The notes: generated by a model from the sequence alone, not told the origin. A stretch of 64,000 nucleotides of DNA from Sphagnum compactum (GCA_965153455.1 OZ234494.1:8308001-8372000), one strand, 5' to 3'. Positions 5,107 to 43,661 are shown, counted from the first letter of the stretch. Made by a program: numbers and translations.

Positions 5107-5166
<60 letters not shown>

Positions 5167-9004: not shown

Positions 9005-9760
9005 GACCTTAGGTTATAGGCTTGAGCATTTAAGATTTGGATTTTAGGGTTTTAGAATTAGGGTTTGGGTTGAGGTTTTAGGGTTTGGCAGTTAAAGTTT
9101 TAGAGTTGAACTTTTAGGGTTGAACTTTTGGGGTTGAGATTTAATTGTGAAAACATTTGGGTTTTAGGGTTTGTGTTATGGTTTAGGGTTTAGGTTTCAA
9201 AATATAAGTTTCAAAGTTTGGGGTTTTAGTTTTTAAGGTTTAAATTTTCAGGTTTAGTTTTTGGGTTTTGGGGTTGAGGTTTTGGGGTTTAAAACCTAAA
9301 GTTTTATGATTTAACTTTTAAAATTGAGGTTTGGGCATTTTAGGGTTTAATTTTTTGGGGTTTTGAACTTGAGGTTTTAGGGTTTTAGTTTTATGGTTTA
9401 AGGCTTGGGGTTGATTTTAGGGTTTCCTTTTTTTTTTGGTTGAAGTTTGGGCCTTTTAAGGTTTTATTTTTGTGATTTTGCATTTAAAGTGTTAGGGTCA
9501 CAATTTTTAGGTTTAAATTTTTGGGTCAAATTTCGGCCTTGGGTTTAAATTTTGTTAAGGTTGATGTTTGTGGCTTTGAAGGGTTAACTTTTAAGGTTTT
9601 AGGGTTGGGGTTTTAGTGTGTAGGTTTCAAACACGTTTTATGAAGGTTTGTTTGAGATTTTTAGGGTTATGTTTGGGCTTTTTTTTGAAGGTTTCAAGTT
9701 TTGTTTTAAGTGTTTAAGGGTTAGGGTTTTGGGTTTAAGTTTAGGGTTTTCTAACTAAGG
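9005..9760 (+). repeat. Degenerate telomere-like G/T-rich tract (~750 bp)
   Basis: Many TTTAGGG, TTTTAGGG, TTTGGG and TTGAGG variants, all on one strand, with few C. Confidence 0.85.
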
Positions 9761-11786
9761 TGTGATTTTTTAAGTTTAAAGATCGAAGTTTCCATCAAGT
9801 TTGGGATCCTGAAAACAACTGGTGTGATGCTGCTCACCACCAAACACATGTATACAGGAAAGAATGTTTCAGATTTTGGCACAAGAATTGTGTTGCAAGC
9901 AGCAAAGATGGGAAGAGGAAGGCAAGAGTGCCCGCATCCTTTTGACATGAAAGTGCTATTCTACCATTCAGTGTTTAACTTTCCACTGAGTTCTCCATTC
10001 AACCATGGGATAGGCATAATAATTGACTCTTCACAATTCTACTTGTCCAGCATACATCCTGTTGAAACCACACTTTTAACTGTCAAATCAATTCAGCATC
10101 ACAAGCTATAGAAATTCCAAATTTCAGAAGTTCAGAATTGATATCACACACCAAAACACATCAGTAAGCATGCACAGCAAAGCAACATAGCAGTGAAAAG
10201 CAAAGCAAAGGTTCAGGAATCACTTACAGAGAACCAAAGAGTATCACAAATCCTGTACATCCAACCAATTGTTACTTCGGGCAAACATCACTCTACCAAC
10301 CCAATCCTCATTGTTCCAACTTTTCAACCCTCCTGGCCCCTGGCATTGTATAATGCATTTAGAGACCAAAAGTCTTCAGCAATTTGTATGTCCGTGAGCT
10401 ACCGCCAACTTGGCAACAATTTTATGCAGAAAAACAGTGATAAATACATGTTTCTTCACATGGCCACATCTTCAAGACATGCAGCCACAAAAGCATTTTG
10501 CTTATTTTCAAGCAAGCATAGCCAGCCACTAGCAAGGACACATGTTCAAATCAGGTCACGTAACCAGACCACACAACCCAATCCCCAAAAGTGTGAATTA
10601 CATTGCAAAACAAAATCATCCTGACAATATCACCCTTGATCAATAGGGATGGGGCTTTCAAAGAATCCAAAGGATGAATGTAAATGATGTGAAGGTTAAG
10701 TGGCAGGATGTCCGCATCTCCAGATAACATTTGCATGAAAACAATGCTCTCCAGCAATGTCAACAGACAGTCTAGATGAGGATGATGACTCATCTCATCA
10801 GACTGCTTCCAAGCTGTAACAGACACAGACTGATGCAAGAAGTAGGGGCATTGAAAATTTTCACATCATGCTGCTGTCCAACTCGTGGGTATTTTCATGC
10901 AGTACCCACAGGCACTCCAACTCAAAACGCCCCTAAGGACTCTGCATTTATGCATGCAGAGCCAAGTAAAGTAACCTTTGATGATAGATCATGTTTCAGC
11001 ATACTGAAAGCATGGAACCCAAACAGGAAGAAGGCATGGAGAATACACACACTCTCTGTCCACATGTAGATGATATAGCTGCAGGAGTATTGTTTCAGAA
11101 ACTCACACTGGTGTCAAGGTTATATTCATGTGAAGCTTACATTCTAATAAAAAGCTGCCATTAGAGGGAAGAACAAAAAAAGGGGTCCAACCCGAGAAGT
11201 AGCCATCACACAAGGAGTCCAAGTTTTTGAGCTAAGCCTACAAAAAAATTGTGTCTTTCTTGATTGAAATACATTCCCTTGGGACTAGAATGGTTCACAA
11301 GCTGGAGATGGACATGACAAACATTCGGCTTGGTAACAAAGCTAGTAGACCATGAAACAACTTACTGGAACTGCCTGCCTACAGATGGAGAGGGTCTCAC
11401 AAGGTCAGTCAAACTGAGTCCTTCAAAGGCTCTTTCTTGAGGAGCGGTGGCGGGAAGCACCAACCCCAGTTGTCGATTCTATCGCACAGTAGAAGCAGAG
11501 ACTGATTTTCACCCCCATCACAAAAAAAGCTTTTACCTCTTGGAACGTTTCAGGAAAACGCATGCCACAAAGAAAGCCCCTTGAAGGCTTTGAAGTGGAC
11601 AGCATCATCATCCTGTCTCCCTTCCAAGGACAACACTACACCCGAGTACATTGAAAAAAAAACCGAAATCACATAGGGCTCTATAACCCTAATCCGTACA
11701 ACGATACCCCAAGGACAAGAGCTTCCCCTCACTCAAGAACGCCTCAAGCTTCTTCAATGAACGGAAAGAAAAAGTATCTCCTTCCT

Positions 11787-12428
11787 TTAGGCATTGGCTG
11801 CTAGGGTGCAATCCCTTGCAAGATGCCCAGACTCTCCACAGTTGTAGCAGTTGCGTGTACCACCACCGCCGCCACCGCCACTCTGTCTGGCATTACCTGT
11901 GGACTCATTAGGGCAATCTCTAGCAATGTGGCCTCCCTCACCACAGTTGTAACATGAGCGGTCGCCTCCGCCGCCGCCACCAAAGCCACCACCTCCTCTG
12001 GGTGCACGGCCTCCTCTGGCTCTTATCCCTACAGGTCCGCCACCACCGTAACCACCAGAAGCCCCCCCAAGGCCACCACCACTACTACGACCTCCTCCTC
12101 CTCTTCCGCCACCATAGCCATCGCGGCGATAAGAAGCGCCCTGCACAAAAGTGCCGCCCGGGCCGGTAACATCCAACGCCTTGGTACGTCCGTCGTCACT
12201 GGACTCCACGGAGAACTCCACGGACTCGCCTTCTCTTAGAGACCGAAAACCCTCGGCATGTATGGAGGTTTGATGGACGAAGAGATCTTCGCCGCCATCG
12301 TCAGGGGTAATGAACCCGAAACCCTTGCTGCTATTGAACCACTTCACGGTCCCGCTCTTCTTCTTGCCAACAACAACAGCAGCAGCTCCTCCAGGAGCTG
12401 CTGCTGCTGCTGCTGCATCTTCGGCCAT
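11787..12428 (-). CDS. CSP: Cold-shock domain protein with Gly-rich linker and two CCHC zinc knuckles (CSP/GRP2, Lin28-like), 213 aa, intronless CDS
   Basis: [15 protein letters not shown] and DLFVHQTSI (CSD RNP motifs); [14 protein letters not shown] and [14 protein letters not shown]; first ATG at 12428. Confidence 0.95.
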
Positions 12429-12879
12429 CCCCCAACAGCGATGGACAAAAACCTCCACGGAAGAAAGAAGAGCCTCTCCACCCGTCCACCCGCCCCTGTT
12501 CCTTCCACAAAATCCCAACTCCGCTGCTTCTGTTCTTCCGGTCACTATTTGTTTTTAAAATTTTCTCTTACCCTCTCCTGCAGCTACTTCTTACGTACTC
12601 CCAACTGCTTCTCGGAATTCGAGAAGAAAGACACCGCTGCAGAGCGTAGCGACACAGAAAGAGAGGAGCAAATGCGGATGGGTGTCGTGGGCAGAAGACA
12701 CGAGACACAAGAGGAGAGGGACAAAAGAGAGAGGGAGGGGGTGGGGAGGGCAGGGGGGATCTCGAAAGGCGCAAATGCGCTTCTTCTCACATATTGCGAT
12801 TGTGGTGCGACAAAGGCGATGGCCGCAGCAGCAGCAGGCTGATGATCATCGGACGGCAAGAGACGAACCCGGTGCTGCC

Positions 12880-13150
12880 AACGGCCCCGATAAGCTCATC
12901 TGAATAATCGGACGGTCGTGAGTGCAGGAGACGTATTAGGGTTTGCACATCATCATCATCATGACGAGTATCGCCAGTGACTCGGGCGATGAGGCAGGGC
13001 CCGGGGGGGCGATGGAAAACCCTAATACGTGCGTGGCCGTGGCCGGCCCTGACGTGACGGCGCTTGCCGTATTACGGCAGAAGAGAGCACCGGATCACAG
13101 ACGGTGATACGGCAGGTGTAAATTGTACGTATTATTGACGTATAAATACC
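12880..13150. promoter_or_regulatory. GC-rich upstream region of the CSP gene with telo-boxes
   Basis: TTAGGGTTT (~12936), AAAACCCTAA (~13016), GGGCCC and TGACGT motifs; abrupt switch to AT-rich DNA after ~13150. Confidence 0.45.
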
Positions 13151-13164
13151 TCGGAGTATATTCG

Positions 13165-13645
13165 TATTATGTTTCCATATGATTATTAATAATTTATCAT
13201 TATTTATGTCAATCTCAAAATTAATTTTAATTAATATAAATATCATGAACATTAAAAAAAAAATCGTTAATTTGTCTTTTCATACTCATGTTGGTGGGTG
13301 GGTAAGCAAGGGGTGAAATAGTCATAAGGATAAGAGATAGTTATTAAGAAATGAGTAAAATAGTTATTAAAAAAAAAAAGACAATTACTAGGAACCAAGG
13401 TAGTTAAGATTGGAAATAAGGTAATTATATTTGAAAATGTTTCTGAATTGTCTAGGGATAGTCATATGAAAGATTATACAAAATCAATAAAGAGTCTACG
13501 GAAAATAACTTGGGCTCCTCAGACTACTAATGACACTACTAATGACAACTTTCTTTCTTATTATGTTTTCATATGATTATCAACAATTCACCATTATTTA
13601 TGTCAATGTCAAATTTAATTTTAATTAATATAAATATCATGGTGT
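13165..13645. repeat. Two copies of an ~80-bp dispersed repeat segment (13165-13250 and 13560-13642)
   Basis: TATGTTT-CATATGATTAT...TATGTCAAT-TCAAA-TTAATTTTAATTAATATAAATATCATG occurs twice; related reverse-complement sequence at ~53010-53060. Confidence 0.7.
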
Positions 13646-16600
13646 TTAAGTTCATCATAACTTGTTGACAAGTTAAACTTAAACTCTTGTAAACCACAAG
13701 GTGAAGGAGGAGGCTTCTTACACCTACATCCTTCGGAGTTGAGAAATAAATGCCACTCTCAGAAAGTATGCATTAGGTAGATCTCTTCTCATTTCTAAGA
13801 GGGATATTCATGAATATAAGGTGCCATCCAACTACACTAAGAAATTTCTGTGAGTGCTTGATAAAGTGCAAGGGGGAGGGCATTGTTTGAAATAAGGGCT
13901 CACACGAAGTGGTAGCTGAGCACTGCCCAACATCGGTAATGTCCTTGCTTGTGGCTTTACCCAGTGTTGAGATCAATCTTGCATTTTTAAATTTCTTTTC
14001 CTGTGATACCCAGTAGGGTTTAGGTACCCTAGGTACCCAGGAAAAAAATGACACTAAGCTTTACCAAAACAGAATGCCCACAAGACTGGAACTTTTCAGT
14101 TTTCAAAAGCCCAAAGAGATTTTATGCCGCGCAAGGCACTCTGTAGATACACTAGAGAAATCAGAGGAGGTCTTTAGGTATTTGAGAACAATGGGTTTCC
14201 TTTGAACTTGCCTGTTGCCAAATAGTCAAGAGATCACCATGCCTTCATCATGTTCAATAGGTATTTATGTGCATAAGTATTGAGTCAAACTTGAAAGGGA
14301 ATTGAGGGTTTAGGTTACCTCATGGTAAAGGCCATGGATATTTCAGATCTGATCACATAAGAGCGACCCATCTTCATGGATCATGAAAAACAAGAAACCC
14401 AACTCAAGAGAATAAATAAATAAAATTTGGGAAGTGGTTTTGTAATTTGACATAGCTAGACTATTACCTATGTAATTATTTAACGGTTAGGTTAGGCGGT
14501 TTACTTATTAATAAATTTTCATAATTTAATTATGATTTGGTCATAGTGCTTGACTTTCACATGATAATTCATATGAAAGTTTTTTGGCACATTACGGTGC
14601 ATTGACTTTCACATGACAATTTATGTGGAAAGTTTTTGGCACATTAAGGTGTATTGACTCACACATAATAATTTATATGAAAAGTCTTTATCACTTTATT
14701 ACACATGTGAAATCGCATTGGGAACCATGTGATGTGTAGACTTTAGGAATTTTTTTGTTTAGTTTTTTTTTGGTTAATATATAAATGGGTGTTTGTGACT
14801 TGTGGAAACATTTTCACTTAATAAAAATAAGTTGTTGTATGATATATAAAACTTCATGGAATAGAATTGTGAAGGGAATTGAGATTTTAGTTTTGAAAGG
14901 TTTTGATATAATTTATATGAAATCCATGGTAGGAGAATGGTGTGGCATACTAATTATACATAGACAATAGAAAGGTGAAAAAACATTTATACAAACGTAT
15001 ATTTTCATAGTTATATAATAAACATACATGTTTCGGTCCTAAACCCGCTTATGATTTATAGTTTGATCTTTGAACAATATAGTTTTCCCAAAAGTCATCT
15101 TGTTTTCACCTTAACTTTGGGCCTCCTTTCACCACCTATCCCTTTTTTGAGTGAGGGTCTGTAAAGTAATGAAATTTTATTAAATCTAGGTATTTAATGC
15201 ACAAGGTTCGAAAGTAATTATAGTAATTGAAATTACATGTAGTAGCAGTGAAGGCGTTCCAAAAAAAGGAAAGAGGGGGTCAAAATAGGATGAAACTCAG
15301 TTCACCACAATAATAAATGGTGTTTTTAAGCTTCAGCCATAAATAGTCGGTTGTATAGGGTAGGTTTAAGACTAATTCTATGGTTTTTTAGTACTATTAG
15401 TCAAAGGTCCCAACTTAGAACCAATTCTTTCATTTTTTGAAAATCACTAGTAAAGGGTTCATACACCCAACCCATATCAACTAGTTCTTTATTAGGGCCA
15501 CAGTGAATCAGCACCCACCAGTGCACCATCCAATGGATGCCAATTATTACTCAGTTGTGGATGAACTTCAACTGAATTAATATTTGGTTTCACCTAGGTA
15601 ACCAATTTTGTAAGAAATAAGTCTTCATATATATAGGTAGAAAAATAGGTAACTATTAGGTAAGTGAATGTTAATATAATAATTATATATAGTAAATAAT
15701 TTAATATATTTGTATGAGTAGGGTGTGAAACATACTATTCTCGAATCTTCAAGTTGGCATTAACCACCCAATTTCTTATTAAATTGTAGTGTAATTTGGT
15801 GTAAGTTTTATGATGATGAATGATCATGGTCTCTGTTTGGTGGGGGTGTGCCCCAAGAAGGGGTAAAAATAAGACAACCTCAAAAGAGAACAAGTGTTGT
15901 GTTTGGATTTCTTATATCAACATGCAAACCTCTCCTTTAACTAAAATATGAAAACCCAAGTCTAAAAAAAAGGAAATCAAGGTAATTGTTTCATATTAGG
16001 TCAGTTGACTTACATGAAATATTTATATCATGAAGATTCTAAAAACTGGCAATGTATTAGAATTTTACTTGGAAAAAAAAACTAATGTTGCATTACTATT
16101 TTTTTTCCATTTGATGTTTTAAAAGGTGTTTTGCCTTGTTTTTGGACAACAACAAAATATAGTAATTTGTACACGTTAATTGTGATCAGATTCAAGGTGT
16201 TTCACAATTAACTTTTGTACATAGTTGGTCATAGTCAATTTTTGGTGGGCAACAAGTAGATTATGTAGTTTTTGTAAGTTTTGTTACTAAGTTTCAGCGT
16301 TTGTATTTTTTTTGAAATTTATGGTTAAACTTGTTCATGGCCCCAACAAGAAAATAGCACAACACCGATGTTTATTGTGGGGGTAATTGATGTGCAATAA
16401 AGATGTTTGGTGTTATATTTGAATGGTCTATAGTGAACATGTATGAAAATTATGATGTGGTTGGCAATGGCTTTTTAAAATATATACATTATGATCTCAC
16501 ATATGCATCAAGGTATCTTACAATAGCTTTGATAGTTGGTTCAACTTTTGTCACTATTTTTTTTCCATGACTCAATGTTGGGTGATACATACTTATTGCA

Positions 16601-20240: not shown

Positions 20241-21524
20241 GATTGATTCTGAACTTATTGAATAAATTATAAATATGTTATTGAATCAAATAAACAATCT
20301 TCTACTTTGTATTCAAAATTTTGAACTTGTTGCAAACCATGTTTGGCTAATTCAATATCTATGCTCATTATGTGTTATTTCCAAATTTCAAATTGATTAT
20401 CTTTAACTTTGAATTTTGAAATTTATGTGAAATTTATCTTTGCAAATTGATATAAAACCAAATGAGAATTGAAATCAATCTAAATTTTCTGTAAAAAAAA
20501 TCAATTAAAAGTTGACCTAATTTTGCTTTAAATATTTTACTCCACCTAATTTTTTCAATTAAAAATAATTTTTGAGATAAATTAAATAAATCTAGTTCAA
20601 AATATTAAAATCTTCACTTGAATTTTAAGAACTTTTTATTTTTATTTTATATATTTCAAATCAATTTCAAACTTTAATTGCAAAATATATTTTATAAATA
20701 TTTTATTTTATTTTATTTTATTTTCGGTTCTTGTAATTAGAATATTTATTTATTTATTTTTATATAGATTTTTTTTTCCAATTTTAGCTCAATTCTTCTT
20801 TTTAATGTTACGTAAACAATTCAAATATTATCTTTAAAAGTTTAATTCTATAGATTATTTGTTTATCAACTTTTTTGAATTTTTATAATATTTTGATATT
20901 TAAAAATATTAATATTTTGAAATTTCACTATCAATGAGAGGGTTTGACTTTCAAATGAAGTTTTCCAAATTTTTCAAAATAAGGTTTTAAATCATCAAAT
21001 TACATATTCAATCAAAATTTCCACAAAAATTTATAGATTCAAACAAAGTTCCAACTTCAAAATAAGTTATAACTTTTAATATTTTAAAATTTTAAAATAT
21101 GAATATTTGAATATGAATTGTTTGAATTTTCTTTGTCAATGAAAGGGTTTGATTCGTATTTGATTAAATCACATAAACAAATCACAATAGACCCCCAATC
21201 AGTCCTGGCCAAAAAGCATGCCCATTATGCAAGTGCAAGAAAGAATTCAAATCAAATTCAAATCAAGTTGCAAGTTCTTCAAATAAGTTCTTGAATCCAA
21301 GCTCTAATTAAAACAAAACCAACTTCAAAACAAGTTATAATAAATACATATTCAAGTTTTAGTTGCAAGTTCAAGTTGTAAATTTTCAAAAAAAATAAAT
21401 TACGTACATACAAAATATGTACAATAAGTTCTTGTTCACAAAATGAACAATACGTCAAATTGTACAAGTGAAGTTTCAAAATGTGATCCTCTAACTAAAC
21501 TATATACACTACAACAACAGGGGG

Positions 21525-22110
21525 CTATTTTGCGATCCACTTATCATCGCAAACAACAAAGAAAGAAGTTTCCGAAAACCCGCATTTGCGAACCATAACT
21601 CCTCGCAAACTGTTAAGCCTTTGCGATACCATAACATTTGCACCCATACAATCGCAAGTCCTTCACAACTCCCGAACTTGATACAATCGCAAAACTTTTA
21701 CGATTATAACTGTTTCTATATACAGTTTGCGATTAACATTACATTGGAAACTATTTGCAACAAACCCATCGCCGCAACGACTTAGCGAATCGATTCAAAA
21801 GTCTATCGGTTTCCGAAATAAGATCTATCGCAAACCCTTAGCGGCATTTTGAGAATCCCAACAAGTTTGCGTTAGATCTTATATCGGAAACCGATAGGCT
21901 TTTAAGATCTCACGCAAACGTTTTGGGATTCTCAGAATGCCGCTAAAAGTTTGCGAAATCTATGATTTCGCAAATGTGTTCTGGAATGATTTTACCCCCA
22001 AGAGTGTAGCGATGTCTGTGACATGGTATTATTGGTCTTTTGGCTTTTGCAGTGTTGCGAAGAATTATGACTCGCAAATTGTTTTGAGATGCACTGTGTA
22101 TCGCAAGAGC
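21525..22110. repeat. Left subterminal repeat array (TTGCGA/TCGCAA in both orientations)
   Basis: About 14 copies counted by eye, plus TTTCCGA-type variants. Confidence 0.85.
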
Positions 22111-22246
22111 ATGGCACTGTATTCTTATTTTGGAAGCAGGGTTTATTTGGGTCACTTTGGGCCGCAAAAAAAAAATCTATATCAAAATTTCAAAATTTAC
22201 AATGTAAAAGGGTTTGCAACCCTTGGGTATCTAACACACTAGCTGT

Positions 22247-24037
22247 CTATCTAGACTTCCTTCCCCTCTTGGATTTCTTCCTTGAATCTTTCTTCCTAGT
22301 GTTCTCTGGTGGAGGGGGAGGCTGCTCATCCTCCTCCCTCTCTTCATCGTCCCCCTGCCCCTCCTCCTCCTCCTCCTCCTCCCTATTCTCTTTATCTTTG
22401 CCCCTTGCAGAACCTTCATTTCCACTAGCAAATGAATTGGGTCCACTGCTAGTGGTAGCACTGGGAGCAGTGCTACCTGCTCTCTCCTCCTCATCTCTCT
22501 CCTCCTCATCACTGCTGCCCTCGGAGCTCTCACTCTCACCCTCAGATGCCTGCATTTCAACATGCAAAGCTTAGTCAACACCATAAATGAAAATCTTGAT
22601 TCAAATGAAAACAATTTCAACACAAACAGAAATTGAATCCCAACCAAACCCACTCACCAATAGTGCATCAACATGTTGAAAAAGATGCTCCTTGCCATGC
22701 TCCTGGCCCATATTCATTTCTGCAGCTGTGATCTTCCTCTTGTACCTCTTGTACTGTCCCCATAATACAACAGGTAAAAAAAACGCATAAAGAATCTATT
22801 CAAGTCTCCGACCACTTTTGCGAAGCGCAGACCTTCGCATACTAACACTTGCGAAGCAGCTGGCGAAACAAATCGCATCGTATCTACTATCGCAACCCAA
22901 AAGGCCAAAACTCCATATACCTGTCTTTGCGATGCAATTCGCATCGCAAAGGTATCGCAAACAGTCCAGTTTGACTTGACTAAAACTCACAAGCATGTGA
23001 GTCTTTGCAGGAAAGAAATGGAGGAGAGGGTTTAGGGTACTTACAAATGCTGCTTTGAGGCCAGGAATGCCACCTTGCCCTAGCCTGTGGATGGTGTTTG
23101 GAACCATTTTCACTCGCTCTGCTGCCTTGAGGAACTTCAATGGTGGATCACCAACCTCGTCCACCACTGATTGGCATTCAGCAAGCTTCAGCTCCAGTGC
23201 CTTCAGGTCACGGTCAGACCTCCCAAACTCTCTTGCCTTCTTGGCCTTGGCTAGCTGCTCTGTGATCTCCTTCAGCTGCCTTACTGCTTTCAGCTGCACC
23301 TCAGACTGGTAGAAGGCATTCCAGATGTCTTCTGAGAACTGAAGTGGCCTCTCCAAGTTCCTGTACACATTCAGGTCTCTCAGGTGAGCACGAATCTTCA
23401 TCCTGTCATGGTATCTTGCTTGAGACATTGAATTGGAGATCTTGTTTGCAATCCACTGTGAATCAAGCTCTCCTCCATTTCGAAATGCTCCCTTGACCTG
23501 ATTTATCACTCTCTTCTGCTCTGCCTTTGAAAGAGTGCCCCACTCAACTCCTCGTGCAAAGTTGGTGGAGACAATGTGCCTAATGGTGCTCTTGGCCCCA
23601 GTGTATGCCAGCTCGGTTGGAATTCCCTCCTCTGCCAATGTTATCAGAGGGAGCTTCTTCCTCTCCTCCTCCTTCTTCTTCAGGTCGAGCTTCTCCTTTC
23701 TGATGGCATCCCTCTCATCCTTCCTCCTTTTCTTCTCGAGAGTTTTAGGTGAGAGAGCTCCTGTAGTTGCTCTCTCATCTCTCTTTCTCTTCTTATCTGC
23801 TGCCTTGGCTTCTGCAGCCTTCCTTGCCTCCTCATCTCTTTGTGCTTCCCCAGCAGTCAGCCCTGCTTGTAGTGCTTGACCTAAAATGGCTGTCAAGGAT
23901 GCCAACCCTTCAGGTGTCCTAGTATCGATTACAGAGAGTTCTGAAGCTCTCAAGTGATCAGCAATCATCTTCCTCAACCTTTCCTCATTGTTGTCACCTC
24001 CTCCAGACCCAGAACCCCCTCCACCAGTCCCAGCCAT
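22247..24037 (-). CDS. TnpA-like accessory protein of the CACTA element (~463 aa, intact); exons 24037-23045, 22753-22658, 22549-22247
   Basis: Phase-0 GT-AG introns give an uninterrupted frame; WGTLSKAEQK..., P.QFSEDIW and HRLGQGG loosely resemble the Ptta/En/Spm Transposase_24 pattern; coiled coils, acidic tail, basic NLS-like end. Family call is an inference. Confidence 0.7.
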
Positions 24038-24670
24038 TGCAATCCGCTCTGCCCAAGCTTTCCTTCGACAATTCTCGAACAATGCCGAGAATGAATTCAA
24101 ATTCCGACGTCATTTCACTCTAGGACCCCAGAAAGATTTCACTACACCTTCAAGGGATTCCGTTTCACTACACCTTAGGCACTTTCGGCAATTCAGGGCT
24201 TGCGATGTAACCCGCATCGGAACTTGCGATACGGGTTTTATCGCAAAGGCCGTGCAATGCTGTTACTTTCGCAACGTTGGAGGGTTGCGAAGTCGGGGCC
24301 TTCGCTAATGTAAGAAGAAGTTTTAGGGTTTAGGGCTTTGGTGCGAAGACGGATGCGATGGTGGGGGGTTCGCAAGGGGTTCGCAAAGTTTTAATTTATT
24401 CTGGTTTTAACATTTCGTTGTTTTTTTTTGCATATGCCAAAGGGTTTTTACAGTATTGCCCCCTACTTCGAAATTGGTGTTGGGATTATTTAAGCAACCA
24501 GTCCTATAGGCATTGTTGAGCCCACATTGGATGCAGGTATGCATTTCTTTTTTGTTTAGGTTGTCTCAATTTATGAGTAGTCAAGGGTTTATATTGTTGT
24601 ATGACATGATTTTTGAAAGTCTAATCTGGTCTTTGCCTTACACTTGTGCCGTATTAATGTGACAGATGAT

Positions 24671-24901
24671 ATGTCTTCCTCCTCCGTTGTCTCCACTAGT
24701 GACTCATCCTCCTCAAATGAGGGCACATCAGCTCATACGCAGGCAGAGGTGTCTCATTCTCCTCGTGGTCCACCTCGGCAGCTTTGCCAATGCACCAAGT
24801 GTGTTGGTCAGATTTCACAAAGGTCATATGTTTGTGCTCAACACATTCAGTGATTTGGGCGTCATCGTGGTCTTACTCCAAGAGCTTCTTGATCTCATGT
24901 G
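24671..24901 (+). pseudogene. First coding exon of the transposase unit, with a zinc-binding transposase-associated-like domain (CxCxxC...H)
   Basis: MSSSS...LCQCTKC...VCAQHIQ*FGRH; two in-frame TGA (24851, 24890) consistent with CGA>TGA; phase-0 donor GTG|gtaagt. Confidence 0.7.
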
Positions 24902-25017
24902 GTAAGTGTCATTTACCATTGTCATTTTTTCCTCTTTGATACATGTTATTTTTCATGAAATCCTCTTTGAAACTATTTTCACTTCCATGGTTTGTTGTGG
25001 TTTTTTGAATGTAATAG

Positions 25018-25817
25018 GGTTCCCGTATGAAACCACCACCCTATGTTCTATCACAAGGGGTTTTAGTTGCCATAGGAAATGCACTTTCGCAGGCATTTGC
25101 TGTAGGGATTGGTACCTCTCATGAGGCCAATAAGCCACAGCATGAGGCAAGGCCACGTGTGCCCTCCGTTAGACAGCGATCCAAAGCACAACATCCAAGT
25201 GAGGGTAATGTTAGGACTATTGTTGAGGGCAGATGGGGTATGTGTGAGTTCATTGGCAAATGTGCCAATATTATCCAATCATGGAACCCTGCAGTTCTTG
25301 GGTTGCTTGATAGTTTGCCCTATGATGAGGAGGTTGTGGTTTGGGGTAGACGATGGATTGTTAACACCTCTACACTTGGAGAGAGGCATGGCTATGGAGT
25401 ATATGCTTGTGAGGACATCATTGTAGAGGATTCAGCTAGATGTTGTAGAGAGGGTCCTACTTTGTTCCCTTATGGTGGGCCTATCTATAAGAGAAGACAT
25501 TGGAACAGGATCCTCACACAACATCCTGAGTGGAAGACCTTTGCTCTTAAGATGGACACCTTTGCTGGTAGCACTAGGAGGCATAGTGATGTGAGGGTGA
25601 TAGATGGAGACCCCATACGTTCTGGAAACATTGCTGGTTTCATCAACAGTACAGTGGGGACTCATCCTAAGCGTAGGGCTAATTGTGAGTGGGTTTTTGT
25701 TGAGGGACCTCCTCCAGCACCATATGGCCAGACTTATCATGAAGACCATTGCCTGTTATAGCTACTAGGACCATCAGATCAGGAGATGAGTTGTTTACAC
25801 ACTATGAGTGGAGTTAG
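25018..25817 (+). pseudogene. SET-domain (lysine methyltransferase-like) exon inside the CACTA element, with a 1-bp frameshift near 25755
   Basis: STLGERHGYGVYACEDI, LFPYGG, VIDG...GNIAGFINS, ANCEW, then in the shifted frame VIATRTIRSGDELFTHYEWS* (TAG 25815-25817): the four SET motifs in order. Confidence 0.85.
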
Positions 25818-25963
25818 GATTCCACCATTTCTGAACTATGTACTTTGTTTAAGACATAACATACCATATCTATATACATGCATTTTGGCATTTTTTATTT
25901 ATAATGTAATATGCAACTATGTTTGGTATATAGTTAAGATCTTCTAGATTTGGTATTGCATAG

Positions 25964-28900
25964 AATATTCGGCCTTCTGAAGACATGCTGCCACGGAGGT
26001 TGAGAGCAACATATCGGGAAATGGGCATGCCACACAAATCAGATTCTTCATCAACTCATTCTTCATCAAATGACTTGTCTGCTCATGATGAAGGTGTCTC
26101 TCAACCAGTTCAGGAAGCACCACTGCCTGCAAACCAAGAACAAGCGATGGATGACTTCATGGTTGACTGGTTTGGACTTGACATAGTTGATGATATGTCT
26201 GGCAACCCACATGATGAAGGAGCCAATGCAGATGTTCCACATCATCAACATACTGCCCAGGGACAACGGCAGTGGCAAGAGGCGGAGGCACATGCTCAAA
26301 CACCTATTTTTCAAGGTGCAAGGTTAAGCCGTTTAGCAGCCATACTGGGGTTGTTAAACATCCAAGCAAAACACAAGGCAAGCAATACTATGTTGTTAGA
26401 CATTTTCCAGTATTGTCATAGCCTCTTGCTGCCTGAGGAAAATGTTTTGCCAGGATCTTGGAAGGAGGCTAAAAAGATCTTATCCTCCATAGGCATGGAG
26501 TATCAAATTGTCCATGCATGTGTTAATGACTGCATGCTATTTCATGGGAACAATGCCCATTTAACGGAGTGCAGTACATGTGAAGAGGCTCGATATGATC
26601 CTCACATGCTTACAGAAAAGGTGCCCAGGAAATCAGTAAGGTGGTTTCCCATTATTCCTCGCTTGCTGCACATGTATCGATGTACAGACTTGGCCGAGTT
26701 AATGGTTTGGCATAAGAAACATCGATCAGAGCCTGGTGTTATGAGGTTACCGGTTGACTCTCCTGCTCACAAGCATGTGGAGTCAACATGGCCAGAGTTT
26801 GAGCGTGACCCTAGGCATGTGAGGTTGGGGTTAGCATCAGATGGTGTTAGTCCACATTCACTTGGAGGAAAGGGACGACCTACCTCTGTTTGGCCAGTTG
26901 TTGTCATGAATTACAACCTTCCTCCATGGTTGTCTATGAAAAAAGGATTTTTGCTACTTTCTCTTATTATCCCAGGGCCAAGTAAGGTGAAAAACCTAGA
27001 CACCTACTTAGCACTAATGGTCGATGAGCTCAAAACGTTGTGGGATGGAGTATGGGCATATGATGGGAGGAAGACCACTGGAGGAATACCACGTGTATTC
27101 AAGTTGAGGGCAATTTGCATGTGGACAATGCATGATTATCCTGGTAAGAAATCATGCACATGCCTCTATATATTTTTTTAATATTCTGTTTTGTGATTAT
27201 TTGTTATTCTAATATTCAGCTCTTCTACAATCAGGGTTTGGTTTTGTAAGTGGGCTGCAAACTCAAGGCTACAAGGCCTGCTCTACATGTGGCCCAAGTT
27301 TGGAGGACATGGTTAAATACTCAAGCCATCTTCGCAAAATTGTTTACCTTGGCCATACAAAGTTTCTTCCACTGGGACATGATATGAGATCAGACCCACT
27401 TTTATTTTCATCTTTTGACATGCCTTATGGTGATGAGCGTGATATTCCAGAAGCTACCACTTTTGCATATTGGAAGGATGTGGCCAATAGAGTTATTGAC
27501 CCAAATGATTCTATGGTGTTTGAGGGTAGTGGATTGACAAGGTGGGGTATACTCAACAGCTTGCCCTATTGGGGTGAGTTGAAAATACGTCATCTCTTGG
27601 ACCCCATGCACATTGAGGGAAATGTGGGAAAGGCTATCATAAAACAGCTCTATGGAGAGAAGGATAGTAACTTTAGGGAGGCCTGTGAGGATTTTGAGAG
27701 GCATCCCGATGTGTGGATTACTATTGATCCTAACACAGGTATTGAGCAGCGACCATCAGCTCCATGGACACTTACTACACAGGAAAGAAAAGATTTTCGA
27801 AATCGCATAGGAGAGATGCGATTCCCTACAGGTTTGAACTTTGATGGCAAGGGTTGAATTTAGAAGTACTCTGTTGCTTTTATTTATATTTAAATCTGTA
27901 TGCCTTATACTGGAAAAAGAGTTTAAAATATAGTTAGCTATCTGTTGGATGTCTAGAATACTTTTGTATAATTTTATGGATCCTTGTTGCAGGTTATGGA
28001 GCTAATCTTCAAAAAGCTTTTGGTAGGGACGATGACCACAAGTGGCCAAGGTATCTGAAGACACATGACTATCATCGTTTACTGTAGCACATATTGCCTG
28101 TGGCAATAATAGGCTTAGCCAGTGCAGAAGTACAAGATGCTCTTTGGTCATTGGGATATCTGTTGAGATGGGTATGCTCAAAGGAGTTATTTGTAGAGGA
28201 GATTCCAAGAATGAGGGTAATAGCAACAGAGGTGGTATGCAAGTTGGAAAAGGCCTTCCCTCCATCATTTTTTGATTGTCAAGTGCATTTACTAGTTCAC
28301 CTTGTGGATGAGATAGCCATTGCTGGTCCTGTGCATTGTCGGTGGATGTATTGGCTTAAAAGATATATGGCAATATTAAAGGGTTATGTCCGTAACCATG
28401 CACGAGTGGAGGGAAGCATGGCAACAGGACACTTGGCAGCAGAGAACATGTTTTATTGCACCAACATCTTGGCCACTATAGATCCATCATGTCTTCATGT
28501 CTGGATGGAGGAAAAAGAAGAGGAGGAAGACCGTTTGACTGGTGCCATCCAAACACGTATGTTATTACCTACAGAGTTAATTCAGCTGACCACATTCATG
28601 TTGAATAATAGCAATGTCATGGAAGAGTGGAGGAACTTCTATGAGAATGCCAAAAGTATGAGTGAGAGATCAAAGATTTTTCTTACGTTGCATAAGTACA
28701 TGAAAGAGAAGTTGGCTGAAGTGGATCAATTGTTGGCACAAGGAGAAAGTATATCATGTTTTCCAGAGATCACAGATGATGTTTGCACCATTGTTCATGG
28801 ACCACAGAGAGTTGTGACAACACGTTCAGCAATGTGGACATAAGGAAGACATTTCAGGTATTTATTTTTTCTATTTCATTAGGCATATTAACTCATCTTC

Positions 28901-29494
28901 ACATTCCAGACAAGTTTTTTAGAATGTTTTAGGATGATTTTTATGGGCATGAAGTTTCTATTATCATATAAGTTGTTGACTCACAATGCCTAACACAATA
29001 TTAATTTCAGGATTTCCACTTTGGATGAAAAGAGGGGCCGCACCTTTGACTGTGGAGTTCAAGGGCAATTCATTCAGGACTCTAGAAGCATTCGGCATGA
29101 CAGGAATATTGTTCGAGATATTGTCCCACATTATGGAAAGCTGGAAGAGATCTTGGTGGTATCTTATGATGCACATTCAAAGTTTGAAGAGTATGTGTTT
29201 AAGTGTAAGTGGTTTAAAGTGAACTTTGCTGGTGCAAATTGCACTGTAGTTCAGGATGAGTGCGGACACACACGGTTAAAGACATCTGCCACCAGTTATC
29301 AGCCATCTCATTGGCAAACTTCAGAGCCATTTACTTTTCCCAGTCATGTAGAACAATGTTTTTATCTTCCTTATCCCCCAAACCCAGAGGAGTGGTCACT
29401 TGTTGTCACATATGTGCCACGGTCCCGTTCTATTCTAGGTGAGAAACCAGAGGTTGTGCTTACAACCTCTGAGGTGGATGATGACCACGTATAA
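25964..29494 (+). pseudogene. CACTA TnpD-type transposase (Transposase_21, DUF4218- and DUF4216-like regions); exons 25964-27143, 27235-27831, 27993-28857, 29011-29494
   Basis: HACVNDCMLF, RHVRLGLASDG, YNLPPW, MHDYPG, LDPMHIEGN, LKTHDYH, FPPSFFD, HLLVHL, GPVHCRWMY, YGKLEEI, FKCKWF, EPF; premature stops TAG 28085 and TAA 28841. Confidence 0.93.
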
Positions 29495-29699
29495 TGTACT
29501 ACTCATTATTTTTATGCAAATTGCCATTAAGGCTTGTGGTTCTATATTACTCCACAATGTTCATTGTGTCAAAGTCTTTAGCGAATTTCAGCCTTTATAG
29601 CTCCGGGAGTAGGCCCTTTGGGAACTTTGTACTACTCTCCTTTGCACTACCGCATGTACTACCTCAATGTCACCGAGATTTTATGCGACTTAAAAAAGG

Positions 29700-30195
29700 C
29701 CGTGATAAATCAGATGACATTGCGAAACCTTTTGCGAAACTTCCTTCTCCAGGATCCCTTTTACTACTTTGCGAACTAACGCACAACGCAACTTGCGATA
29801 CGTCCAACACTGGAAACTTTTGTTAAAATTTGTGATGAGGTTTGCGATACATATTCAAACGTAAAATGCGATGCGCCGAATAACGCAAGATTGCGATTTT
29901 TTATGAGTCTCAAAGTGTTTTGCGATACTTTGTGTATTTTAAAATTTGCGATGTTGTGAGTATGATTAAGAGGTGCGAACTGTGGAATATCGCTAGCGTG
30001 CACGGAAACTGAGAGGGTCGCAAAGTTTTGGTTGTGGTATATGTCGCAAAAGTGCTGTGATGATTTAAGGTACATTATATATTAGCGATGGTTGGTGAAC
30101 CACAAGGTGCGATGCGTGTCACATCGCAAATATGGCAGGTTGTTTTTGCTTCGCAAACCCTTCCAGTTTTTTGTTTTTCCCTTCGCAAAAAGGCA
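29700..30195. repeat. Right subterminal repeat array (TTGCGA/TCGCAA)
   Basis: About 13 copies counted by eye; orientation switches from TTGCGA to TCGCAAA near 30000. Confidence 0.85.
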
Positions 30196-33100
30196 CAATA
30201 TGTAGTAGTGATAGGCAAAGGAAAAAACCTTGTTTTGATTTGAAATCTTTAGGATTGATGAACTTATGTCCAAGCAATGGCTCAATCCATGGGTCACACA
30301 ACATGATGTTAAATTCTTCATTGTTGACCTACTTGATTTTGCAAGCAATGTGAGGTTGAAAATTATCAGAAACCATACACTTACAGACCTAACAATAGTA
30401 ACCAACGTCTCTATTTGTGAAAGATGGGAGATGACATTTCTCACAAACATTTTCGAAGCAAGTTGCACCAATTGGGATTATCAATGTCCCCACACTTATA
30501 ATCACAACATTAAAAGCCATGGAATCAACATATGTAACTCACTTCATTGTTTTTATTTCTCAATAAAAAAGTTTTCAACACATAAATATTTCAAATTTGA
30601 ACATACCTTAAAGTTGGTTGCGAAATCTTGACCTTCTATCCTCTTATTATGGATTTCAGTCAACCTTTTAACAATTATAGCATCAAGAACAGGAATCACA
30701 AAGATGGTAGCATAATTAATTACCAATTGTTGTTCACCAAATTAAGAACTTTCAATGTTTTTGACCAACATTGTTGCAGGGTTGCTACATCTTAACCAAT
30801 CGCATGTATTGTGCAAAGAACTCAAGATAAAATGACAATGCATGTGCATCATTACTACCCAACCCATCTATAACTACTAAGATAAAAGCCTTGGCAGATC
30901 GCCCATATATCCTTGTGACCATTAACTCCATGGTTCCTAACTCTTCTTAATACAAATTCCCAATTTCCTCTCTCAAACCTATTTCTAAAAGTGACCGCAA
31001 AATTGAGCACCCATATGAAGGAACCCACCTTTAAATGAGGGGGAAAGGTAGAAACAAAACTAGACCTTATAATTAGAGTTAGTCAAATATCCAAGTGGAT
31101 CTACTAAATCATAATGGATATATTTAAACCCACTTCTAGGGACATTTGCAGACCCATACCTGCTAATAATGTAACCTTCAAAACAAACACCAAACATTTT
31201 TTGTTGCACGTTGATGATGCTAACAACATTCATAGGTGCAGTTCTTTTCATGCTTGGGCTAGGTACTAGTTGAGCCATACAACACAGTTCACAAAGTTCC
31301 CAAAAAACAACCTATATACAAACAAAACAAATTGTTTGTATATTTTTCACTATAATATGCATAATTGATAGAAAGTTTACATATATTTTGCACTTTAATA
31401 TACACAAAAAACTAAAAACTAAAAGTTTTATGAAGCCAAAACTCAATGTAGTTATGGAGCACTTAGATATCTATGGCAAACAAAAAATGTGTCTGTCTTT
31501 TACACTATAATATACACAAGAAATAGAAAATAGAAAACCTTATCAAACTAAAATCCAATGTAGTCATGGAACACTTACAGATGTGTGGGGTGTTATGATT
31601 TGTTGAAGTGCAAACAAAAGCCTTTAAAAGACTTCAACAATTCAAAGAATAAACAAGTGAGCAAATAGAAAAAAAACTTCAAACATAGCTTAAATCATGG
31701 GTCTCAAATGTCACAAAACTTGCAGAGCACAAACTAAACAAGATGCTAGTTTAGAAAGTGCTCCTAGAATAGAACCAAATAGCATTATATAGCAGCCATG
31801 ATAACCCATGACCTCCGTAATAAGTGTGTTGAGGTGTACAAAATTAGGGTTTAGATTTAAATTAGGTTTGTATTAAATCTAGGGCTATAATGGATTAGGG
31901 TTATATAGGTTCACAACTACATTTAAGTCTGTAATGGATTAGGTTTATAGTATAATTTTCAGGGTTCCTTGCCACTTGTCCCTATACCAAACCTTAAAAT
32001 ACTCTAGATTAGCAATAACCTAAGTTGAGACCTAACAACAAATTACGGCTATTAATTAAAGACCTATTAAATAATTGCATGGATACAAATAAACAAGGGG
32101 CATGGGCTACATCTGACACATAATCATATACTTCAAAATTAAATATTAAACTAATAAAAAAGAAAGCACATTGGGTCATTAATTAGTAATCTCTTCAACT
32201 TATGTGTAGAAAATGCATAGTGGGATTATATGAGAATTGCAAGGTATGACACTATAGGATATGTTTGGCAAATTGAATGAGGGCAAATTATATACCCTGC
32301 AATGTCATACCGACATTTTCATACCTACATTTTCATACCTACAATCAAACATACTTGGGCAATGACATATGCAGGGTATGAATATGAAGTTGTACCATTA
32401 GAGTCTACCATGAAGGTGAATCAATTCAAAAATTCTAGTTCATGTTCAAGTGGGTCCTGCAAACACAGAACATGCATTCTATTTCAATTGGCTAACTTAT
32501 TAGCAATAAAGTAAACAAGATTCGAATAAGGTAGAATTCGGTCCAACAAAAGCACTAAGAGGAAGCAAAAGAGCACAAGTTGAATACAAAACATGTATGA
32601 GAAGTCACAAAAATATATAAGTTGAGTTGCCTATCCTAGATTCCCATTGTATAATTCTTAAACATCTTCTCCAATAAAAATGTCATGGAACAATGAGCAC
32701 ACACATCAACCAACTATGAATTTTTGGGTTAAGGCACCAATTGTCTCATCTTTGATGAAGAGACCACGCTTTAGATGCTCATAGATATTGTTGAGCACTA
32801 GATTATTCATTTGTTGGAACAATGGTACCTGCACAATTGACAGAAAAACAACTTTGCCAAAAACAAGACAAAGCAAGGCAGAGGTCGTGCTTTATGTCAC
32901 AATGAAGGCCCTCATGCAGGTTTTACACAATAGCCTCTTCATCTATACCACAAATTGTTGCCCATTTCACAAACACGTAGAAATCACCTCCAAGTTCATA
33001 CAATATTTCCTAAGGGGCAACTTAAAACAACAAAATCCAATGGCACAAAACTCAAGACTTTGTATTTTGAGCTATAGTGTAAGAAAAAAAACCATCTCCA

Positions 33101-40350: not shown

Positions 40351-42295
40351 ACAAGACAATGTAAAGTTGATTTCAAATTTTTTTTTGCTAAAAATGGTGA
40401 CACCTATTTCAAAATATAATATAAACAAAAACATTGTGTTCGCTACTAGTCTACATTGGATAATATATGATTCAAACACACTAACAATAACACCATATAA
40501 TTACTAACTAACAAGATTAATGTTGAACACTTACACATACATATGCAAATGTCATGCAATAGCTAGACAATAAATGTTGTGGGCTTTTCACAGAAACATA
40601 TGTGATCGATATAACATTTGGACTCAATCTAGAACAATTTTTTATGATGTGTCATAAATGTGATAACATTTGCACAACAACATAAACAATAAAAATATAT
40701 CTCCATTCCCCAAGACAAAATTCATGACAATACAATCCTTTAATATTTGATCTTTAAAATCAAAATTTCAAAACATTATAATAGATTCAAATTTATTAAC
40801 ATTCCACATTTTTGTTTAAATGAAACAATAAAAAAACACCAAAATCAAGAAATTTACAATAAATTATCAAATAAGTTCAACATTTTATGATGCTAAATTT
40901 TATATGAAACAATATATTATATAATCAAATAATATCCAATTTCTCATAAACAAGTTCCATAACAAATTCAGGTGTTGAATTCATTACTACATTTTTTAAC
41001 AAAAGCATATACACTAAAATTATATTTAATTGCAATTTATAAACTACCTAAAATTGATTTGTGTTCCATTTTGTAAACCATCATTAAAAAGATGCCTAAA
41101 TGCTCCAACAATGTATAATTGAAGATTTCAATGTTGATATGTTAACAAAAGAAAATAAATCCAAAAAATTACACAATTTTAGGACCAAAAAATATATATG
41201 AACTTAGCTTATTAAAACATACAACAATTAATGGGACACAAATAGTCATCAACAATTTTGATGTCAGATTTTGTCACATTATAGACATCTTAAATAATAA
41301 AAATTTCTCACCCAAGGTGACTTTGCTTCTTGATTTATCACATGTTATTTTTTATGTTTGTAATTTAATATAATGATTAACTATTTAGTTCAAAAATTGA
41401 CATTGTCATTCAAAATTATTTACATAAACTAATGATCTCGCTATTGCCTATTCTACTAGGTTTGGTGCGCAGTTCACCTCATTAGGCTTGCCAATGACCT
41501 TATCAAGTAGATTAGGCAATAACAAGACCATTATCTAATACATATATCATCACAAATTTGGCCCGTTCATGTATTTGTGCTTTTATAACATTTTTATCAC
41601 ATTTATATTACAATGCCATCATAACATCATATCGACGATTATATATTGAACACTTCATTAACACTTAATCTTAACACATTATTAAAATGTTATAAACGCA
41701 CAAATATATGGAGAGGACAAGTTTGTGACAATGAACAAATGGCAACTATACAACAATGTCATTCAAAATCAACACAAGCTTATTGGACAAACCCTGAACC
41801 TATATACCTCAAATTGCAAGAATATGGCCCTCAATTCATAACACACCATTGATTTCTCGCTATAATAATAATATACAATTCATATCACACCATTGATTTC
41901 TCGCTATAATATATGATTTATAATATTAAATTTTATTATTTATCATAATCCATAAAGGTGCAGGGCATGCATGCTCACGACACCTTGTTCCGCTCCCCTC
42001 TTTTTTCCTTTCTTCCATGTGTGCATTGTTTTCATCTTGACTTTTTGATTTTCGCCCCCAGTTTTGACAGAACTGGGGCTGAATCTGATTGATTACCCAC
42101 CAAAACACATTAAATAAAGCAAAGTGTCCCTTACTGCAGACAACACAAAAGTACTCTCTAATTCCCTTTTTTTTCCCATGGCTGCCCATTTGTCCGTCCA
42201 AGATGTGTCTGGAGATGCCCAAATACATTTTTGGTGCTGGCAATTATAGACTTTTGGGTGTTGCCATTTATACCCTCCGGTTATCATCTCGGGGT

Positions 42296-42855
42296 GTATA
42301 TTCACTTACCTGATCAGGGTGAATTTTTGTTTTTTGTTTTTTTGGGAAAAACTGATTTTAGTATGGAACTTTGAATCTTCATTTTTTTGGGGAAAATTTC
42401 CAAAAACTGCCTTCCAAACTGCCCGGTTCTTTCATGAAAACTGCCAGTTCTTTAATGTTTCTGGAATAACTGGAACGGGCAGTTCTCCGATTCTGAAATT
42501 AGAAAAAAAGAAAAAACCAAAAACTGACGGTTCTTTGATCCTGACATTGTTAAGGAATTGGAACAACATTGTTCTAAACCCAGAGATACCCAGCGGTTAT
42601 AATCCTGGGTAATATACTCACTTACCTGACTGGGGGTGATTTTGTTTTGAAAAACTGGTTTTAGTAAAATAGAACTTTGAATTCTCATCTTGTTTTGAAA
42701 AGTTCAAAAAACTGCCTTCCTACCTGCCGGTTCTTTCATGAAACCTGTTGGCTCTTTGATGGTTCTGGAGTCACTACCGGAACCGGCGGATCTTCGGTTT
42801 TGAAGCGTGTACAAACCCGGAACTGACGGTTCTTTGATCCTGAAAATGTTTTTGG
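42296..42855. repeat. Diverged tandem duplication of ~310 bp upstream of RFC1
   Basis: CACTTACCTGA...AAAACTGCCTTCC...CGGTTCTTTCATGAAA...AACTGACGGTTCTTTGATCCTGA at 42303-42544 and 42619-42843; related fragment at ~7988. Confidence 0.75.
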
Positions 42856-43661
42856 AACGTCCGGTTATTTAAATATCAAATCACCGCACCACATTGCTCT
42901 TAAACCCTAAAACCCTGCGCTCCATTTCCTCGACCGGGGGAGCGCAGAATCGATCCAGGCACGAGAAGAACTACGACTACGAGAAATCCAGAGTCTAGTT
43001 CGCAGTAGTAGTGCAGTCTCGTGCTGCGGACTAGTGATGTGGGGGCCGAAGCAAAATTGTGTCTGACGTTAGACAGAGATGGAGCCGGCGGTGTAGTGGC
43101 AGGTAAGCGTTTTGTTGCAAGAATGACCTAATTTTTGTTGTATTCACAGTTTGTGTGGTTTGCAGACATGTGTTGCAGTCTAGTCTCTCCTTCTGCTGCT
43201 GCTGCTGCTGATGAAGAGAGACGCGGAGAACAGATGCAATAAATCTCACTTGATGTCAGAATGTATGAACGGAGATGCCACAGTATACAAAGCGTTTGCT
43301 GGTTGGTTGTCGTAAGAATGACCTAATTTCGAGTTTTCTTTTGCAGTGTGTGTTTCTGGGAGATGCAAGTCTGCCATTCGTGCGGGGCAGTAGCGCTGTG
43401 GTTGTTGTCCCTCCCTTGAGTACTTTTCTGAACAACCCAACATCTAAATTTCTTTGGTTTTGGTTTTTGGGTCTTGTTGGACGTGCTTGTGAAGCTGTGT
43501 GGAATGATAATGTGCGGTGGTCCGTGCGTTTCTTCTGTGCAATGGATGGGGCTATCTCTTGAAAAAGTGACTTTGCGGGATTTCTGAAATGTTCTCTAGT
43601 TCATGGGTGTGGGGCCAGATTTTCTGTGGGAAGAGTGAATTTTAGTCGTAGGGTTTGGAGG

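Follow-up and report, generated by a model that had tools for sequence, protein, structure and literature searches.

The subject of this report is a 64,000-nucleotide stretch of Sphagnum compactum DNA (OZ234494.1:8308001-8372000, referred to throughout as the window), which holds a decayed member of a CACTA (En/Spm) family of DNA transposons that is present in Sphagnum in high copy number. In this element an exon for a SET domain is located between an exon encoding an N-terminal zinc finger (ZnF) and the remaining exons of the transposase gene and, as judged from the sequences of its relatives, this nested, shared-exon architecture is real and conserved. On balance we favor the reading that the family encodes both a ZnF-SET protein and a ZnF-transposase from one unit, by the choice between two acceptors for a single donor.

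In the mechanism that we propose, one plus-strand transcription unit would consist of a 5' untranslated region (5'UTR) exon, a ZnF exon of 77 codons, a gap of 1,062 nt and four exons with the tnp2, DUF4218 and DUF4216 domains, and the gap would accommodate a SET exon of 266 codons with its own stop, 116 nt past the ZnF donor. Splicing of this donor to the near acceptor would yield a ZnF-SET protein of 343 amino acids (aa), while splicing to the far acceptor would yield a ZnF-transposase with a predicted length of about 1,118 residues, close to that of its relatives (1,050-1,135 aa). The same zinc finger would thereby be placed on a chromatin-type enzyme and on the transposase and might direct both proteins to the element, where the SET protein could, as a guess, mark the element's own chromatin against silencing. 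The features of this unit are as follows.

24537-24665, plus strand: 5'UTR intron, GT..AG, 66.7% A+T, with RNA joint 24536/24666
24666-24901, plus strand: ZnF exon, ATG at 24671, 77 codons, CxCxxC-x13-H, phase-0 donor
24902-25017, plus strand: intron 1 (GTAAGT...TAATAG), 116 nt, 70.7% A+T
25018-25817, plus strand: exon for the SET domain, terminated by a stop of its own and 266 codons long in the majority state of the family
25818-25963, plus strand: A+T-rich spacer with acceptor 2 (GCATAG) at its end, representing either a 3'UTR of SET with a poly(A) region or the tail of a long intron 24902-25963
25964-27143, plus strand: transposase exon A, acidic linker and start of the tnp2 domain (PF02992, E 5.9e-40), donor G/GTAAGA at 27143/27144
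27235-27831, plus strand: transposase exon B, 3' boundary from the weak RNA joint 27831/27993 (run X4 only, depth 4)
27993-28857, plus strand: transposase exon C, DUF4218 (PF13960, E 3e-32), with nonsense codons at 28085 (TAG) and 28841 (TAA)
29011-29494, plus strand: transposase exon D, DUF4216 (PF13952, E 3.4e-07), natural stop at 29492

Splice signals and lesions of the window copy

A first-pass annotation of this DNA had described an exon at 24671-24901 with a CxCxxC...H motif and a phase-0 donor that could be joined in frame to either of two acceptors. The motif (CQCTKC...H, with the CxCxxC beginning at 24785), the ATG and the donor (GTG/GTAAGT at 24901/24902, phase 0) were all found as described, but the exon starts at 24666 and carries two in-frame TGA codons in the window copy. 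Both acceptors lie in the frames assigned to them: acceptor 1 (TAATAG/GGT at 25017/25018) starts the SET frame, with 247 codons in this copy, and acceptor 2 (GCATAG/AAT at 25963/25964) starts the transposase frame of 405 codons, and at both sites the acceptor's own in-frame TAG bounds the downstream open reading frame (ORF) on its upstream side. The AT-rich stretch noted behind SET is likewise present, with an A+T content of 72.6% between 25818 and 25963; the exons have 51-55% A+T and the introns 67-75%, in keeping with the gene model, and no AATAAA was found in this spacer. Note that two in-frame acceptors are by chance alone a roughly 1-in-9 event, and any weight beyond this is due to their conservation in other copies and lineages rather than to the two in-frame sites themselves. 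An out-of-frame ATG at 24666, five nucleotides upstream of the main start and directly at the 5'UTR acceptor, opens an overlapping frame of 80 codons across the ZnF exon (24666-24905) that is present in the close family and absent from the most divergent sister locus, L015.

The match to PF02992, Transposase_21 in Pfam, is located downstream of acceptor 2, and exons A to D sum up to 3,126 nt that remain in frame and are interrupted by the two nonsense codons only. These codons, TAG at 28085 and TAA at 28841, read CAG or CAA and CAA or GAA, respectively, in the same four sister copies. In the ZnF exon, the TGA codons at 24851-24853 and 24890-24892 take the place of CGA and TCA in most sister copies, and in the SET frame one nucleotide was lost after 25754, such that the last 20 or so residues (the ...GDELFTHYEW tail, ending in ...IATRTIRSGDELFTHYEWS before the stop) are found in another frame; sister contigs from RNA libraries have an extra G at this site. 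The window copy can thus make neither a ZnF-SET protein nor a ZnF-transposase. Its SET ORF alone gave no Pfam match and nothing meaningful against PDB sequences, and the shifted tail of 24 aa matches PF00856 with an E-value of 0.052. Three of the four nonsense codons are C-to-T changes (24851 CGA to TGA, 28085 CAG to TAG, 28841 CAA to TAA), the first of them at a CpG, and this fits the decay of a methylated repeat.

Conservation of the layout and the ZnF-SET proteins

A set of 36 sister loci was obtained from one metagenome scan, 35 of them with 92-97% identity to the window in the region of overlap and one, L015, with 73%; all counts given here are taken among those loci that cover the respective site. 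The GT of the donor is present in 21/21 loci and the full GTAAGT in 18 of these 21, acceptor 1 reads TAATAG in 26 of 29 loci and TAATAA in the other three, and the AG of acceptor 2 is kept in 19 of 20. Conservation of the acceptors and their phases across the family, which had been named as a check on the first-pass proposal, is thus observed, but given the low divergence among close copies it says little by itself. The per-column majority state of the family has an open ZnF exon of 231 nt and an SET exon of 801 nt with a single terminal stop, and the first 147 nt of transposase exon A are open in 17/19 loci. In one of the sister copies, L022, an insertion of approximately 2.5 kb (2238-4719) was found inside the ZnF exon, near window position 24700.

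The most informative copy is L015, in which an open ZnF exon ending in ...SSSQM/GTATGT is followed by the acceptor TAATAG and an open SET frame of 262 codons. The L015 contig then continues for about 225 nt of A+T-rich sequence that could not be aligned, and it terminates with ...TTGTTCATAGAATATG (end CATAGAATATG), repeating the CATAG/AATAT of acceptor 2. A global alignment of the L015 spacer did not place the terminal CATAGAATATG on acceptor 2, and the match comes from direct reading of the sequence; acceptor 2 is therefore probably kept in L015 as well. A comparison of L015 with L003 yielded ratios of nonsynonymous to synonymous divergence (dN/dS) of 0.58 for the zinc finger and 0.45 for SET, at a dS of about 0.48 and intron distances of about 0.40. 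These values indicate moderate purifying selection on both exons between the subfamilies, with a dN that is inflated because L003 is a decaying copy.

The ZnF-SET layout recurs in annotated proteins, all of them gene predictions in the case of Sphagnum, Calypogeia and Riccia. Models of 343 or 348 aa with the exon junction ...GASSSHV/GSRM... exist for S. fallax (two), S. jensenii, S. troendelagicum, S. balticum and S. compactum, and the corresponding cluster at 90% identity has 360 members. In liverworts, models with 30-62% identity were found in Calypogeia fissa (P0017, P0043) and Riccia sorocarpa (P0123, P0118, P0100, P0134). In P0104, a continuous ORF of 423 aa on a Logan contig of 2,141 nt, the zinc finger is followed by SET within a single frame. 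In addition, nine out of ten short, ZnF-only ORFs from other 50% clusters have a valine (GTN) after SSSxx, exactly what read-through of a conserved donor would give. We regard it as very likely that the family produces a ZnF-SET protein.

The claim of the first-pass annotation that SET is integrated into the element rather than passively captured is supported by the ZnF-intron-SET layout with both exons open in L015, by the dN/dS values and by the recurrence in Sphagnum, Calypogeia and Riccia. That SET might be a captured fragment of a host gene in the manner of Pack-CACTA elements, devoid of a role, with acceptors arising by chance and gene models as artifacts, deserves very little credence: host-exon capture is known for CACTA elements, as far as the accessible part of the literature goes, substitutions within the young family look neutral and the window SET has no Pfam match, but the same layout is found in lineages of 30-62% identity from three bryophyte genera, dN/dS is below 1 between subfamilies, the SET motifs are invariant and the fold is confidently predicted, and the SET family is small and isolated, with just 115 of 1.84 billion representatives matching at E <= 0.001 and no host parent gene among the matches looked up by name or source, all named ones being from Sphagnum, Calypogeia or Riccia.

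In intact relatives the match of the SET exon to PF00856 is close to the cut-off of 22.4 bits or below it, with scores of 22.9 for P0001, 24.9 for P0040, 21.7 for P0017 and 13 for P0045. A profile built from 48 SET sequences found its best match in the PDB with an E-value of 1.5e-05 over profile positions 104-254, the whole core. An AlphaFold2 model of P0002, based on an alignment of 48 rows, reached a mean confidence (pLDDT) of 84.4; an earlier model of P0001 from a 13-row alignment had a pLDDT of 37.3 and was unusable. A Foldseek search with the SET model returned 259 matches at E <= 0.001, the best being 5czy (E 4.9e-07), and the approximately 40 matches listed from ranks 1-50 were all SET enzymes, led by LegAS4, SET8/KMT5A, MLL1 and ATXR5. 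The predicted structure thus confirmed that the exon encodes a true SET fold. Motifs conserved in the family are GxG, as G(Y/L)G(V/L)FA, and ELxxxY, as GDELFTHY, the ELFTHY part of which is out of frame in the window. The product would be lysine methyltransferase-like. By profile and by fold, the closest solved relative of this SET domain from a plant transposon is LegAS4 from Legionella, ahead of SET8, MLL and ATXR5. The canonical SET motif is NHxC-x-PN; in the HMMER alignment LegAS4 reads YINFS...DN opposite the YINS of the family and is also devoid of the histidine.

Does the transposase carry the zinc finger?

The case for a splice from the ZnF exon to the far acceptor is comparative. It includes P0051, a continuous ORF of 1,135 aa on a contig of 3,879 nt that is without SET and 42% identical to exon A. 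Here a zinc finger in residues 8-34 (...LCPCKKC...HVEKWG) is followed directly by the linker and tnp2, and it aligns without gaps to the zinc fingers of the ZnF-SET proteins, with C, C, C, H and G retained in at least 90% of 21 sequences. The N-terminus of P0051 matches PF13963 (Transpos_assoc) with 17.3 bits (E 0.0056), below the cut-off of 27.7, and an hhalign comparison of the bryophyte zinc finger with 15 angiosperm N-termini gave a probability of 62% and an E-value of 7.6e-5, with the Cys and His columns aligned. PF13963 is listed for 13 of the 17 named flowering-plant matches. In six frames, the element contains only one CxCxxC motif with a following H...G, and if 24901 is spliced to 25964, the distance from the first Cys to an (I/L)(F/Y)xGA motif is 153 residues, versus 157 in P0051. 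Taken together, the homology to P0051, the likeness to Transpos_assoc, the single zinc finger and the matching spacing make the ZnF exon most simply the first coding exon of the transposase, with SET nested in its first coding intron, and we consider a ZnF-transposase made by the 24901-to-25964 splice probable.

RNA evidence was sought in contigs of four RNA-library runs that were aligned at 90% likeness and gave a list of 14 joints; of the 24 runs listed, 14 are registered as RNA, the best of which contain 0.35-0.47 of the sampled words. The GT..AG joint 24536/24666 is seen in a single X4 contig with 26 letters on the shorter side, and in X6 a loose end at 24536 continues with 15 letters that equal 24666-24680; a spliced 5'UTR joint in two runs speaks for transcription of the unit.

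Several observations weigh against the use of one ZnF exon for two functional products. Neither of the joints 24901 to 25018 and 24901 to 25964 is among the 14 in these contigs, while in all four runs unspliced contigs extend across intron 1 (24697-25088), and in X4 they also pass from SET into exon A (25177-26122). No predicted protein or RNA contig was found that joins the zinc finger directly to exon A, a search with the zinc finger of P0001 (residues 1-80) against proteins of 602-2000 aa returned no match, which is weak evidence, and the sole models combining the zinc finger with the transposase, P0006 and P0178, run through part of SET by way of differing internal donors. P0001 and P0017 gave no match to PF13963 at E <= 1, placing their zinc finger below the Pfam threshold, and an in-frame ATG at 25985, seven codons past acceptor 2, could start a transposase without it. 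Decay is also common in the family, with the SET exon open in 5/17 and the ZnF exon in 9/18 loci, and all three coding parts are open in L003 only. Within the young family SET shows 109 nonsynonymous to 36 synonymous shared changes and 106 to 33 singletons at an expected ratio of 2.76, a pattern that looks neutral and as such is uninformative about function. Finally, the SET family is without the canonical histidine, as (F/Y)INS...N replaces the NH motif.

With respect to the RNA, contig depth is flat from one end of the element to the other, so that carry-over of DNA is possible and pre-mRNA and DNA are not told apart; as contigs also drop rare forms, they neither support nor refute the two ZnF splices. 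Of the first-pass claim that SET is an alternative terminal exon within the first coding intron of the transposase gene, the position of SET between a native N-terminal ZnF exon and the rest of the transposase was upheld, whereas its two splice joints did not appear in the RNA contigs.

If the ZnF exon now served SET only, a transposase devoid of the zinc finger could be made from ATG 25985, with its RNA arising either by unspliced read-through or from a promoter within or close to the A+T-rich spacer. The in-frame start, the lack of a ZnF-transposase junction among the proteins and RNA contigs, the X4 contig that runs from SET into exon A without interruption and some angiosperm homologs that are listed without PF13963 would all be in line with this possibility. 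We nevertheless consider it unlikely, as relatives, namely P0051 and most of the named flowering-plant matches, do have this zinc finger on their transposases, acceptor 2 matches the donor phase and is retained in nearly all copies and probably in L015, the spliced spacing agrees with P0051 and there is no second zinc finger in the element.

A different use of the internal donors would turn SET into a cassette within one long ZnF-SET(part)-transposase fusion that resembles SETMAR. It is suggested by P0006 (S. jensenii, 404 aa) and P0178 (Riccia, 625 aa), which join the zinc finger, part of SET and the N-terminus of the transposase, and by P0053 (Riccia), which links the C-terminus of SET to the transposase. 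These three models, however, exit SET at three different places and two of them leave out the ELxxxY motif at the C-terminus, both the family majority state and L015 retain the SET stop codon, and each model is the single member of its cluster and has the appearance of an ORF-maximizing prediction on a decayed copy; a regular fusion of this kind is accordingly quite improbable.

The element and its relation to known systems

The shared-exon unit is part of an element whose borders and remaining features are listed below, with terminal inverted repeats (TIRs) and target-site duplications (TSDs) at both ends.

21507-30210, plus strand: whole CACTA/EnSpm element, decayed, 8,704 bp, with termini CACTACAACAACAGG at 21507 and, on the reverse strand, CACTACTACATATTG ending at 30210
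21504-21506, unstranded: left TSD, ATA, as at the other flank
30211-30213, unstranded: right TSD, ATA, as at the other flank
21507-21521, plus strand: left TIR, CACTAC...
30196-30210, minus strand: right TIR
21530-22106, unstranded: left subterminal TCGCAA/TTGCGA cluster, 14 copies
29720-30188, unstranded: right subterminal TCGCAA/TTGCGA cluster, 13 copies
22796-24109, minus strand: ORF of 437 codons, divergent from the ZnF gene, a candidate second element gene
24110-24536, unstranded: intergenic region of the divergent pair, with the plus-strand 5'UTR exon at its end, a probable promoter, as the spliced joint with donor 24536/24537 places the RNA start upstream of 24536

The alignment of five sister loci starts at 21504-21507 and sister loci stop at 30210-30211, while the depth of RNA-library contigs falls to 0 beyond 30228. 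TIRs starting with CACTA, a TSD of 3 bp, a tnp2-type transposase and short subterminal repeats are all present, as in the CACTA superfamily, and the best protein matches for the locus are annotated Sphagnum proteins. Within the element there are 41 occurrences of the hexamer TCGCAA/TTGCGA (4.7 per kb), a 20-fold enrichment over the remainder of the window (0.24 per kb), with further clusters at 22818-22955 and, between the divergent genes, at 24200-24386 (seven motifs). Its presence at the termini as well as in the intergenic promoter region would suit a putative binding site common to both. The minus-strand ORF of 437 codons has a Lys/Glu-rich middle part and matched no Pfam family and no convincing Atlas neighbor, all scores being below 0.9; it may represent the second, TnpA-like gene of the element.

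Seven sister copies (L007, L010, L012, L023, L028, L033 and L035) have about 260 bp of extra sequence in the putative promoter at 24444-24448, which suggests two promoter variants within the family. Past 29571 (window 29571-29614), L009, L014, L016 and L028 as well as contigs of all four RNA-library runs diverge from the window, and L028 has about 1 kb more at this site (14854-15861); in its 3' non-coding part the window copy has undergone a rearrangement or deletion. No further copies of the element were found within the 64-kb window. Elsewhere in the window, two 82-nt sequences form an inverted repeat with 78% complementarity and a spacing of 10.2 kb (52809-52890 and 63102-63183) and may delimit a different element, and the blocks 1-14000 and 42000-52000 are richer in G+C.

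In the full-text literature we found no description of an SET exon that is nested in a CACTA transposase gene, shares its ZnF exon and is conserved in bryophytes; Repbase Reports, subscription journals and supplements were outside the scope of this search. The closest parallel in expression strategy is maize En/Spm, where alternative splicing of RNA from one element produces a 2.5-kb and a 5.8-kb transcript and the tnpD ORF resides in intron 1 of tnpA (PMC2613891). Both elements belong to the same superfamily, with CACTA TIRs, a 3-bp TSD and tnp2, and the splicing of two proteins from one promoter is classical for En/Spm (PMC2613891). In the moss element, by contrast, the accessory SET exon is inside the first coding intron of the transposase, the products would share a coding ZnF exon, the counterpart of the second classical gene seems to be an ORF of its own that diverges on the minus strand, and the alternative splicing is predicted from sequence.

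Lysine methyltransferases of the SET type have been described as accessory proteins in HarbingerS, in MuDR families of Phytophthora and in Helitron captures (PMC12730594; bioRxiv 10.1101/2025.02.11.637652). Going by the accessible parts of these reports, the moss case differs in being a CACTA element of a bryophyte host with SET as a nested exon that would be spliced to the N-terminal exon of the transposase, not a separate gene. More similar is the Plavaka element (EnSpm/CACTA) of the red alga Bostrychia, whose accessory gene PAG2 is described as combining a DNA methylase with SET (bioRxiv 10.1101/2025.02.11.637652), and which is thus likewise a CACTA/EnSpm element with an SET-containing accessory gene. 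The moss SET is without a methylase domain and has LegAS4, SET8 and MLL as its nearest solved relatives, and for PAG2 the available text makes no mention of an exon shared with the transposase; note that the two SET domains are compared by description only. In SETMAR, the primate SET-mariner, SET and transposase are also linked in one locus through splicing, but there a host SET fused to a dead mariner forms one domesticated host gene, whereas the moss SET has its own stop and is present in hundreds of mobile copies. VANC of the VANDAL (MuDR) elements is similar in that, as far as the available text states, a transposon-encoded accessory protein is proposed to act on the element's own chromatin; it has no sequence or fold relation to the moss SET, for which an anti-silencing role is an inference only.

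To our knowledge, few transposons encode epigenetic enzymes, and little has been learned about how these reach their element. The gene layout described here suggests a way, in that splicing would provide the enzyme and the transposase with one common zinc finger at the N-terminus. Since mosses and liverworts both retain the layout and there are intact copies, the idea is directly testable. Only tentatively do we extend it to a bryophyte-wide CACTA clade with a chromatin writer built into the transposase gene, in which the choice of the 3' splice site would put the transposase zinc finger either on SET or on the DDE transposase. If this were true, an enzyme methylating histones or other proteins would be sent to the DNA sites of the transposase, where it may for example help to resist silencing or mark ends or targets. 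For the annotation of Sphagnum genomes, the finding means that hundreds of models named 'SET domain-containing protein' are transposon genes, not host chromatin genes.

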